DNA of 64,000 nucleotides from Thermoanaerobaculia bacterium (GTDB taxonomy: Bacteria > Acidobacteriota > Thermoanaerobaculia > UBA5066 > Gp7-AA6). Below are positions 4,368 through 5,891 of the stretch, in pieces. The notes under the pieces were generated by a model. It made no database searches, was not told the origin of the DNA, and saw only the letters and a program-made list of their open reading frames with translations. The stretch lies in NCBI GenBank assembly GCA_038203955.1, contig JBBRDK010000005.1, forward strand, positions 6,401-70,400, given 5' to 3'. The first letter of the stretch is position 1. Every line of letters starts with the position of its first letter. Made by a program: the position numbers and the translations under genes.

Positions 4368-5075
4368 GTGGCAACGAAACCTCCGCGGAAAAAGACGCCG
4401 TCCCGACTGGAGGCGGTCGTCGCCGAGTTTGAAGATTTCTACGGCGCTCCGCCCCCTCCCATCTCAGACCCGTTCGTCAACATCGTCTGGGAGAACGTGG
4501 CCTACCTGGCGGACGACGCCCGGCGGGCCGAGGCCTTCCGGATCCTCCGGGACGCGACGGGTCTCGATCCGCGGCGGCTTCTCGCCGTGCCGCGATCCGC
4601 GCTTCACGCGATTGCGGGCCGCGGCATCCTTCCGGAGCAGGCCGTCGAGAAGCTGAGAGAGATCGCCGCGCTGGCGCTCGAAGAGTTCGGCGGCGATCTC
4701 GAAGCCGTGGTGGCGCTTCCGTCCGCCGACGCCGCGCGAGCCCTGCGGAGGTTCCCCTCGATCGGGCAGCCCGGCGCCGAGAAGATTCTGCTGTTCGCCG
4801 GGCGGCTCGCCGTTCTGGCGCTCGAGTCCAACGGACTCCGGGTCCTGCTGCGACTCGGGTATGGAAGAGAGGAGAAGAGTTATGCGGCGTCGTATCGCTC
4901 CGCCCAGTCCGCCGCCGCCCCCGAGCTCCCGGCCGACTGCCGCGTCCTGATCGCCGCCCACCAGCTCCTGAGGCGACATGGTGTTGAGCTCTGCCGTCGT
5001 TCGCAACCTCAGTGCGAACGATGCCCTGTCGCGCGTCGATGCGACTATTTCAAGAAGTCAAGAGTTAAGAGTTAA
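4368..5075 (+). CDS. HhH-GPD / endonuclease III-like base-excision repair protein
   Basis: HhH motif LRRFPSIGQPGAEKILLF and a C-terminal 4Fe-4S loop C-x6-C-x2-C-x5-C (CRRSQPQCERCPVARRC). GTG start at 4368 chosen because the upstream part of the track ORF overlaps the divergent dipeptidase gene. Confidence 0.7.
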   Translation: MATKPPRKKTPSRLEAVVAEFEDFYGAPPPPISDPFVNIVWENVAYLADDARRAEAFRILRDATGLDPRRLLAVPRSALHAIAGRGILPEQAVEKLREIAALALEEFGGDLEAVVALPSADAARALRRFPSIGQPGAEKILLFAGRLAVLALESNGLRVLLRLGYGREEKSYAASYRSAQSAAAPELPADCRVLIAAHQLLRRHGVELCRRSQPQCERCPVARRCDYFKKSRVKS

Positions 5076-5167
5076 GAGTTAAGAGTTGAGAGTTGAGAGT
5101 TGAGAGTTGAGAGTAAACACGCCAGGCACGGGAACCTCTGGACTCTCAACTCTGAACTCCCAACTTC
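5060..5167. repeat. Inverted pair of heptamer arrays: (A/G)AGAGTT x8 at 5060-5114 and NAACTCY x4 at 5140-5167
   Basis: Read directly. The arms are near reverse complements separated by 25 nt, between convergent genes. Both arms extend into the last codons of the flanking CDS (KKSRVKS* and GKLGVQS*). Confidence 0.85.
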
Positions 5168-5700
5168 CCTTTCACCCTCTCCGCCTGCCACAGGTGCCGT
5201 CTTTCGTGCGCGGCGAGGAAGGCGAACCACTGGCCGAGCGTCATCTTGAAGCGCCGGCTGATGGGAGAGCTCATCCGGATCGCGCCGACGTCGAGTCCGT
5301 CGGCGGACCGCACCCGCGCGCCGAGCTCTTTCTGAAGCTGCAGGACCCGCGGCACGACCTCGGCGGGCGGCGGATCGAGCCGGGGGCGGTACTGCCGCGG
5401 GGACTTCACCTTGATGCGAGCGGGCGGCTCGATCAGCCGGATGTAGAGGCGCCCGAGCCAGGGCTCCGAAAACGGCCCAGTTCCGACGAGATTTCTGTCG
5501 CGCGCCTCTCCGATCTTCCCGTCGAGCTTCGGAAGGACCTTCCAGGCGGCATTCAAGTGCTCGAGACATTCGACGATCGACCACTCCCCCTCCGCCGGGC
5601 GCCAGAGCAGGTCTTCGTGCGAGAGTCTCGCGACGAGCCGATCGATCCGCTCATGGAGCGCGGTGAACTGGGAGTCGTAGGAGGCGAGGACGGAGTTCAT
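5146..5700 (-). CDS. DinB-family (DinB_2) metal-dependent protein
   Basis: 184-aa ORF with the WSIVECLEHL and LAAHERRHLWQ His motifs typical of the DinB four-helix bundle. Confidence 0.8.
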   Translation of the reverse strand: MNSVLASYDSQFTALHERIDRLVARLSHEDLLWRPAEGEWSIVECLEHLNAAWKVLPKLDGKIGEARDRNLVGTGPFSEPWLGRLYIRLIEPPARIKVKSPRQYRPRLDPPPAEVVPRVLQLQKELGARVRSADGLDVGAIRMSSPISRRFKMTLGQWFAFLAAHERRHLWQAERVKGKLGVQS

Positions 5701-5708
5701 GGGAAGTG

Positions 5709-5891
5709 GAGAGTTGAGAGTTGAGAGTAGAGAGTAGAGAGTAGAGAGTTAAGAGTTAACAGTTAAGGGTTCCAGGCCAGCAACCGGACGCGGCATCTCC
5801 AGCTGAGTTTCCCACGGGCGCGCCGAGCTCCGGCCTCACTCGGCACTATCAACTCTGGACTCTCAACTCTGAACTCTCAACTCTGAACGTT
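5709..5891. repeat. Inverted pair of heptamer arrays: GAGAGTW-type x9 at 5709-5771 and SAACTCT-type x6 at 5850-5891
   Basis: Read directly. The arrays flank a 78-nt unique core and lie in the divergent promoter region between the DinB and NmrA-like genes. Confidence 0.85.

Follow-up and report, generated by a model that had tools for sequence, protein, structure and literature searches.

Intergenic heptanucleotide tandem arrays and inverted array pairs in a Thermoanaerobaculia bacterium (Acidobacteriota)

Tandem arrays of heptanucleotides have been known in cyanobacteria since 1990, and the short tandemly repeated repetitive (STRR) sequences of heterocystous cyanobacteria have the units CCCCAGT (STRR1), TTGGTCA (STRR2) and CAACAGT (STRR3). 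The repetitive extragenic palindromic sequences (REPs) of proteobacteria are fixed palindromic units of 20-40 nt that are copied together with a spacer and commonly lie as inverted doublets between genes, often convergent ones. Here we describe 22 arrays of 7-nt units in a 64,000-nt stretch of a metagenome-assembled Thermoanaerobaculia bacterium of soil and sediment (GenBank assembly GCA_038203955.1, contig JBBRDK010000005.1, positions 6,401 to 70,400; the whole stretch is called the window, and its positions are counted from its first letter), several of which form inverted pairs and some of which differ between natural strains by whole units.

A closely similar heptamer system is that of Xanthomonas, where two genomes carry 186 and 183 GGGAATC arrays of 2-26 units, 89-93% of them intergenic, at a mean of 28 nt from the upstream open reading frame (ORF) and under-represented between divergent genes; each genome has 70-75 convergent inverted pairs, and array length and sequence vary extensively between close species (Rehm et al. 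2015, PMC4692102). No regulatory effect was found in that study, oligonucleotides of the GGGAATC unit formed G-quadruplexes (G4) in vitro, and the GGGGAYT heptameric repeats of Nostoc were grouped with the Xanthomonas type (PMC4692102). Over-representation of heptamers in many bacterial genomes is credited to Mrazek et al. 2007 in the form in which PMC4692102 cites that work, and a polymerase footprint as the cause of the 7-nt preference is a published hypothesis only (PMC4692102). TAACTGA arrays occur in Beggiatoaceae, Cyanobacteria and Bacteroidetes; in Beggiatoa there is one dominant unit in 2-6 copies, nearly always in one orientation just upstream of start codons, with a single inverted repeat (MacGregor 2015, PMC4679880). 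Of all heptamer arrays, (ATCTTTC)n at the hmw1A and hmw2A loci of Haemophilus influenzae has been studied best: its transcript folds with a complementary arm into a long hairpin, which RNase III cuts, and changes in repeat number need the hairpin, RNase III and transcription, all three (PMC12721329). Our literature search found no paper on heptamer arrays in Acidobacteriota.

Period-7 arrays and their unit families

Arrays were detected with Tandem Repeats Finder (TRF) and a separate autocorrelation scan of the window (G+C 67.3%), and a rough gene map built from codon statistics was used to separate coding from non-coding DNA. The 22 period-7 arrays have 2.7-8.9 units each and sum to 791 nt. 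The non-coding DNA (~11.2 kb) held 13 period-7 arrays with a TRF score of at least 40, compared with a mean of 0.01 and a maximum of 1 in dinucleotide-preserving shuffles of the same segments (n = 100), and none reached that score in the 52.8 kb of coding DNA. Additional TRF rows at periods 14 (5 rows) and 21 (3 rows) redescribe these same arrays. Among strict runs found by autocorrelation at periods 4-12, period 7 gave 6 runs (278 nt) and each other period 0-1. Every locus at which a sequence-only reading of the window had reported such arrays was recovered by both scans, and the heptamer period does exceed what shuffled intergenic sequence yields. That reading's "strict period" with 4-9 units was correct in the period and slightly overstated in strictness and unit range, since 2.7 units is all that three arrays contain, the one at 2863 shows 26% indels and variant units occur in most of the others. 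The arrays are listed below with coordinates, strand and context; pairs A to D and J are the inverted pairs treated in the next section.

2863-2889, + strand: degenerate (CGGGAAT)~3.9, TRF 73% matches and 26% indels; tandem GGGAATC at 2874
5056-5114, + strand: (AAGAGTT)4(GAGAGTT)4, 8.4 units, left arm of pair A
5136-5165, - strand: GAGAGTT type (AACTCTC on the + strand), ~4.3 units, right arm of pair A
5705-5766, + strand: GAGAGTT/GAGAGTA/AAGAGTT, 8.9 units, left arm of pair B, DinB start codon 5 nt away
5767-5844: unique core of 78 nt that separates the two arms of pair B, where DinB and NmrA diverge
5845-5888, - strand: ACTCTCA/ACTCTGA (as + strand), 6.3 units, right arm of pair B, NmrA start 53 nt downstream
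9831-9881, + strand: TCAGTTG/TCAGTAG, 7.3 units, arm of pair C, between the stop of the GreA-domain gene and the start of the MerR gene
9893-9929, - strand: AGTTCTC/AGTTTTC (- strand), 5.3 units, second arm of pair C, gene stop (9934) 5 nt away
16707-16745, + strand: GGGAGGC/GGAAGGC, 5.6 units, left arm of pair D, overlapping the end of the 15120-16739 gene
16748-16766, + strand: CGGGAAA, 2.7 units, left terminus of a copy of a ~70-nt dispersed element
16909-16958, - strand: GGGAGGC (- strand), ~7 units, right arm of pair D
21893-21927, + strand: GAGCGTT, 5 units
21954-21981, - strand: CGGGAAT (- strand), 4 units; tandem GGGAATC at 21964
21993-22011, - strand: GGGAGGC (- strand), 2.7 units, upstream of a rhodanese gene
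24456-24487, + strand: AGTTCTC, 4.6 units, the whole 31-nt convergent GAPDH/DUF4760 spacer, overlapping the GAPDH TAG stop
26326-26344, + strand: CGGGAAT, 2.7 units, terminus of a copy of the ~70-nt element
27263-27298, - strand: GAGCGTT (- strand), 5.1 units, in a co-directional spacer
28646-28671, - strand: degenerate GAGAGTT/TTGAGTT (- strand), 3.7 units, def stop 3 nt away
29197-29238, + strand: AGTTCTC, 6 units, def start 8 nt away, arm of the weak pair J
29285-29319, - strand: AGCTGTC (- strand), 5 units, 8 nt past the tRNA-Phe 3' end, in the region of pair J
33603-33639, + strand: (GTTGAGC)2...(GTTGAGA)2, 5.3 units, 36 nt past the tRNA-Cys 3' end
61182-61218, + strand: AGCTGTC, 5.3 units, starting 3 nt after the fusA stop
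62139-62165, - strand: GAGCGTT (- strand), 3.9 units, in the 33-nt zwf-pgl spacer, overlapping the pgl start

After rotation and strand normalisation the units fall into four superfamilies, GAGAGTT/GAGCGTT (8 arrays), AGTTCTC/AGCTGTC/AGTTGTC (6), CGGGAAW (4) and GGGAGGC (3). The occurrence of each family in both orientations at different loci, as first reported from the sequence, agrees with TRF and with sequence inspection. An identical unit is shared with another locus by 19 of the 22 arrays, and a unit with at most one mismatch by 21, compared with a mean of 7.2 and a maximum of 17 in 2000 trials with random heptamer sets. Within arrays, variant units stand in blocks of identical copies, such as (AAGAGTT)4(GAGAGTT)4 and (GAGAGTA)3. 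We ruled out a clustered regularly interspaced short palindromic repeats (CRISPR) array, which has 24-48-nt repeats and unique spacers; the units here are 7 nt long and stand head to tail without spacers. Neither the heptamer arrays nor the ~70-nt element matched an Rfam family, whether by gathering or by E-value threshold. A separate coding repeat at 40239-40624 (periods 63, 30 and 33 nt, TRF score up to 176) encodes acidic, proline-rich low-complexity sequence and is unrelated to the heptamers.

Gene ends, inverted pairs and turnover

Arrays extend up to and into gene boundaries. A stop codon or the 3' end of a tRNA stands 0-36 nt away from about 11 of 17 array ends. The array at 5056-5114 provides the nth-like ORF with its TAA stop (5073-5075), and three more boundaries fall inside arrays, namely the stop of DinB (5146), the start of pgl (62146) and the end of the gene at 15120-16739, which bears out all four overlaps of the original description. 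Four arrays (5705-5766, 5845-5888, 29197-29238 and 62139-62165) stand 0-53 nt upstream of start codons.

Inverted pairs occur at five loci of the window:

Pair A, 5056-5165: in the spacer where the nth-like gene and DinB converge; -45 kcal/mol, with z -4.0 on one strand and -3.7 on the other
Pair B, 5705-5888: one arm on each side of the 78-nt core, in the divergent DinB/NmrA spacer; -86 kcal/mol for the entire structure, z -4.95
Pair C, 9831-9929: in the spacer between the GreA-domain gene and the MerR gene; z -4.85
Pair D, arms 16711-16743 and 16928-16960: 33 nt, 91% complementary, 184 nt apart
Pair J, 29197-29319: in the spacer from def to tRNA-Phe; z -0.09

Pairs A, B and C, together with two pairs found in related genomes (L125 and L240, below), fold with z of -3.6 to -4.95 relative to shuffles. 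Three placements proposed by the sequence-only reading hold, namely a pair at 5060-5167 between convergent genes, a pair at 5709-5891 around a 78-nt core in a divergent promoter region, and a TCAGTWG array that pairs imperfectly with the array at 9894-9928. Its broader proposal, that inverted pairs can form long imperfect hairpins, is supported for A, B and C (z -3.7 to -4.95) and fails for J. Many other contigs in the same metagenomes consist of an array, a unique loop of 12-28 nt and an inverted array.

The arrays were then traced in Logan assemblies of public metagenome runs (X1, sediment; X2, soil; and X3 and X5). Independent assemblies of X1 and X2 reproduced 4400-5107 and 5085-5880 without differences, and an assembly artefact, which would have undone the original description, is thereby excluded. 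The arrays do not appear to be confined to the window: summed contig word depth in X1 was 1800-2350 over 5009-5182 vs 12-15 in the flanks, a depth to which hundreds of contigs with unrelated flanks contribute, and perhaps other genomes in the sample. X5 contains a syntenic genome ~94% identical to the window at ~44x, in which array bins reach 5-19 times baseline with diverse flanks.

Comparison of copy numbers between strains, which had been suggested as a check, revealed differences in whole units. In a strain ~2% diverged (X3), the contig skips from 5067 to 5103 in the array at 5056-5114, a difference of 35 nt or exactly 5 units, and in X5 the array at 28646-28671 is 7 nt shorter. The array at 24456-24487 is retained in X5, where the spacer of pair C is replaced by 148 non-aligning nt and the pair B region is skipped from 5706 to 5834, in both cases with flanks still 93-95% identical.

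Relatives show the same sites with other arrays or none. EF-G (59080-61179) is 97-98% identical to proteins of metagenome-assembled genomes (MAGs) labelled Thermoanaerobaculia or Acidobacteriota. The sequence that follows the fusA stop differs among the genomes compared:

Window: (AGCTGTC)5, then the ~70-nt element
L123 and L124 (98% EF-G identity): the ~70-nt element only, no array
L240 (a Thermoanaerobaculia relative, 84% EF-G identity): (AAGGACT)4, 25-nt loop, (AGTCCTT)4 at 12094-12170, filling the convergent fusA/zwf spacer
L125, L238 and L239: spacers of ~12 nt
L237 and L126: more than 160 nt without arrays

The L240 pair folds at -39.6 kcal/mol (z -4.1) and its unit is unrelated to the AGCTGTC of the window. 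In L125 the dsbD-rnc spacer, only 11 nt long in the window, holds a 125-nt inverted pair, (CAGTTTT)n/(AACTGAC)n. Taken with the strain differences, these comparisons show that array birth, resizing and loss are much faster than change in the surrounding genes, and that the inverted-pair architecture has arisen more than once, with different units.

Heptamer arrays are also widespread beyond this lineage. The proposed search of other genomes for the same heptamers found (GAGAGTT)x3 at more than 120 loci in a species-representative genome collection, in Bacteroidales, Verrucomicrobiota, Planctomycetota, Acidobacteriota, Gemmatimonadota, Cyanobacteria, Fibrobacterota, Chloroflexota and others. 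The same loci held 72 further period-7 arrays of other units, compared with 14, 7 and 2 arrays at periods 8, 9 and 6, respectively, and in viral-contig controls the numbers of loci were 44 for GAGAGTT, 28 for GAGTGAT, 13 for ACCTGAT, 2 for an octamer and 15 for a pentamer. We therefore rejected GAGAGTT as a special cross-phylum or horizontally spread unit, since other heptamers are common too and GAGAGTT is at the high end without being unique; the general feature is an excess of heptamer arrays and not GAGAGTT itself.

Of the 127 (GAGAGTT)n arrays in the cross-phylum loci, 50 are located within long ORFs, and all but one of these 50 have AACTCTC on the coding strand (49 arrays), a sequence that is stop-free in every frame. 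They are in-frame insertions in inter-domain linkers (...QLSTLNSQLST...) of P-type ATPase, UvrA, QueA, NadE and dihydroorotase, the last with 44 units and a duplicated flank of ~23 nt. The in-ORF arrays are:

L003, 4569-4603
L007, 3710-3744
L061, 5734-5810
L081, 2717-2751
L121, 1597-1904
45 further loci among L003-L122

Flank-to-flank duplications around 121 (GAGAGTT)n arrays, all from genomes other than the window, were at control level except at L121 (~23 nt). A target-site or flanking duplication as a signature of array birth was accordingly rejected, L121 being the sole case.

Two dispersed elements accompany the arrays. One, of ~70 nt (GGGAGCCGAGCGACCAACGGGAGCGAGACGGCCGCGGTACTCCGCGGTCAACTAGATCGGGAATCGA), has an internal 8-bp hairpin and CGGGAAW heptamer units on both sides, and occurs in the window as follows:

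16758-16820, + strand: partly deleted copy, flanked by CGGGAAW
26336-26405, + strand: copy
28538-28610, + strand: copy
61220-61292, + strand: copy adjoining the (AGCTGTC)n array, kept at this site in L123 and L124

Three copies are sense at gene 3' ends and one is antisense. Others were found in L123 (12100-12180) and in L127-L134, and in X5 bins with the element have ~50-90 times baseline depth; the copies vary too little for covariation analysis. A metagenome scan with the core of the element returned 8 short contigs with (CGGGAAA)n of up to 8 units on both sides and with (NAGGCGT)n inverted pairs. The members of the CGGGAAT family are largely termini or remnants of this separate element, and the array at 2863-2889 looks like its termini without the core. 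The second element (CCCCAACCCTCTCCCCGCGCCCGGGGAGAGGG) is palindromic and contains a perfect stem of 11 bp (12158-12183). Two copies stand in tandem upstream of the GreA-domain gene (12028-12067 and 12148-12187), and a similar sequence lies in reverse at ~16851-16897; in X5 the element has ~6 times baseline depth, with contigs that link it to the 16.7-kb locus.

Short-read contigs (L001, L002, L123 and L124; runs X1-X5) end inside or beside heptamer arrays and the ~70-nt element, and contigs carrying the NmrA and fusA genes also end inside arrays. Arrays and element together are a systematic cause of MAG fragmentation in this lineage, and in practice almost every array interrupts the short-read assembly of these bacteria, which are abundant in soil. 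The stretch 14859-14909, of high read depth, was considered as a further repeat element and rejected; reverse-complement translation places it in the Walker A motif of a minus-strand ABC ATPase gene.

Some neighbouring genes have unusual structures. In the 286-aa ORF at 16432-17292 (- strand), the YbjQ_1 domain covers residues 7-84 only, and the tail of the ORF extends through (GGGAGGC)n into the gene at 15120-16739, which converges on it; the real gene probably ends earlier, or else the array encodes its C-terminus. At 9934-11997 (- strand) a 687-aa protein has GreA/GreB N- and C-terminal domains confined to residues 539-673, and its 540-residue N-terminal extension had no Pfam match. An exact-protein look-up of DinB gave no match.

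Slippage, a probable role at transcript ends and alternative explanations

On balance, and with moderate confidence, we read the arrays as heptanucleotide simple sequence repeats that are driven by slippage, are tolerated only outside ORFs and, where they form hairpin pairs, probably shape transcript ends. The whole-unit indels and the blocks of identical variant units show that slipped-strand mispairing resizes the arrays in steps of 7 nt. Arrays survive only where such a step is harmless, outside ORFs, and so fill spacers up to stop codons and tRNA 3' ends; purifying selection acting on 7-nt steps within genes is consistent with both their absence from the ORFs and their extension to stop codons. 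A long imperfect stem could form between two oppositely oriented arrays of the same family. Once transcribed, such stems may act as transcript ends or processing sites, whether as bidirectional terminator-like structures, as protection of 3' ends or as RNase III substrates, and a change in unit number would tune the length of the stem or the spacing within a 5' untranslated region (UTR) or promoter, as with (ATCTTTC)n at H. influenzae hmw. The hairpin pairs probably do shape transcript ends, a role favoured by the lack of enrichment of canonical terminators, by RNase III being encoded within the window (rnc), by the location of pairs mainly at 3' ends and by the hmw precedent. Canonical intrinsic terminators at the arrays were rejected, as the hairpins lack U-tracts and hairpin-plus-U terminators are not enriched (9 found vs 12.8 in shuffles).

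Several observations weigh against this account. Slippage alone predicts a different unit at each locus, yet 19 of 22 arrays share one, so that a spreading or sequence-selecting process is missing; related genomes use other units than the window, and both the preference for a 7-nt step and the reuse of few families are outside its reach. For the transcript-end role, the array hairpins have no U-tracts, pair J folds at the level of shuffles, pair B sits in a divergent promoter region and not at 3' ends, and our search for RNA runs found none containing the window region. Variant units in the arms of pair B are mismatched without compensatory matching, and since the variants of the two arms differ in this way, perfect pairing is not under maintenance. 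A structured 3' end is also not required at fusA, since several close relatives have spacers of only ~12 nt there.

HutP of Bacillus reads NAG-N4 repeats. The arrays could by analogy be multivalent sites for a sequence-specific DNA- or RNA-binding protein, for example an oligomer that recognises one short motif per 7 nt, with families kept by selection for binding. In favour, few unit families recur at many loci, most families can be written as NAG-N4 on one strand, with the N before AG often the variable position, and the window's unpaired arrays that stand in co-directional spacers or 3' UTRs, five in number, all have the NAG strand in mRNA sense. A binding partner has also been proposed for the heptamer arrays of Nostoc and Beggiatoa. 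The orientation bias, however, does not extend across phyla, where unpaired (GAGAGTT)n between co-directional genes are sense in 15 cases and antisense in 9 (not significant), and the TAACTGA arrays of Beggiatoa are oriented the opposite way. Units are unrelated in related genomes, unit number and sequence change fast, and no candidate protein was identified, though no search was aimed at HutP-like proteins. We regard binding as an unlikely explanation.

Three observations go further than passive slippage: the small set of unit families peculiar to each genome, the independent origin of the array-loop-inverted-array layout with unrelated units at one orthologous site, and the in-frame insertions of the same heptamer arrays in conserved proteins of other phyla. 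They could stem from active seeding of repeats, dependent on hairpins and on transcription and perhaps coupled to RNase III or a template, an idea that we consider rather unlikely. If it were true, an array-dense lineage such as this would be well suited to studying the bacterial preference for a 7-nt unit.

A mobile origin would also explain why units are shared within one genome. The arrays or their inverted pairs would then be non-autonomous mobile elements, of the type of miniature inverted-repeat transposable elements (MITEs) or REP doublets forming hairpins (REPINs), copied by a transposase to new intergenic sites. Arrays of the same unit do stand at many loci, in inverted doublets and mostly at gene 3' ends as REPINs do, array word depth in the source metagenomes exceeds the genome baseline more than 100-fold, and a genuine dispersed element, the ~70-nt one with CGGGAAW termini, coexists with them. 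The loop, however, is unique at every locus seen, which leaves no conserved unit to be copied; the arms are tandem arrays of variable length with independent variants, flanking duplications are at control frequency around the 121 arrays of other genomes, L121 excepted, and strains differ in whole 7-nt steps. We give this origin a slim chance.

For the G-rich families CGGGAAT and GGGAGGC, action through a G-quadruplex or i-motif, as proposed for Xanthomonas GGGAATC, is very improbable. The Xanthomonas unit is present in tandem at two window loci (2874 and 21964), and its oligonucleotides are the ones that adopt G4 in vitro (PMC4692102), but this mode would cover only 7 of the 22 arrays, most of these with fewer than four intact G-tracts (2.7 units). 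The majority families GAGAGTT, AGTTCTC and AGCTGTC have no G-tracts, and Rehm et al. saw no effect on regulation (PMC4692102).

That the arrays are artefacts of assembly or sequencing has next to no probability, even though assemblies do break within arrays, and is refuted by the identical assemblies of two runs over 4400-5107 and 5085-5880, by orthologous arrays with whole-unit differences in the diverged strain and the ~94%-identical genome, and by the respect of arrays for ORF boundaries.

Comparison with known heptamer systems

The window arrays are of the same kind as known heptanucleotide long simple sequence repeats, with which they share the period, the intergenic bias, whole-unit variation and inverted pairs. 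The label "STRR-like" of the sequence-only reading is apt for this kind, tandem heptanucleotides of several families at many intergenic loci with inverted pairs, and does not hold in the strict sense, because the host is acidobacterial and none of the canonical units CCCCAGT, TTGGTCA and CAACAGT has a tandem copy in the window. Its view that the cyanobacterial repeats are the only comparable system is contradicted by Xanthomonas (PMC4692102), by Beggiatoaceae (PMC4679880) and by the distribution of (GAGAGTT)x3, and with ~185 arrays per Xanthomonas genome such a system is not rare in a high-GC non-cyanobacterial genome.

REPs and REPINs resemble the arrays as short intergenic repeats in inverted doublets that form hairpins, and differ from them in that the arms here are variable tandem arrays with unique loops. 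The hmw (ATCTTTC)n tract is likewise a variable-number heptamer array with a hairpin, and RNase III, involved there, is encoded in the window here; hmw, however, is a single 5' UTR contingency locus with a demonstrated phenotype, whereas here dozens of loci stand beside housekeeping genes, mostly at 3' ends. TAACTGA repeats share the intergenic location, with some arrays inside ORFs, and the window unit TCAGTTG is one mismatch from the reverse complement of TAACTGA, but in the window several units occur in either orientation, chiefly near the 3' ends of genes, and inverted pairs are many.

These arrays offer useful comparative evidence, with no new principle demonstrated. They add a new phylum-level host with a high array density (22 in 64 kb). 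They also show directly that natural strains differ in array length by whole units, and provide clear cases in which arrays were gained, lost or independently re-invented at orthologous sites. The closest likeness is to Xanthomonas GGGAATC, in the high-GC non-cyanobacterial host, the intergenic location near upstream 3' ends, the inverted pairs and the length variation. The two differ in that the G-rich unit is here a minority tied to the ~70-nt element, and in that the dominant units (GAGAGTT, GAGCGTT, AGTTCTC and AGCTGTC) are AT-richer and not G4-capable, fall into at least 4 superfamilies and belong to an acidobacterial host. The novelty is therefore the host lineage, the class Thermoanaerobaculia of the Acidobacteriota, and not the kind of element, in a system that closely parallels that of Xanthomonas.

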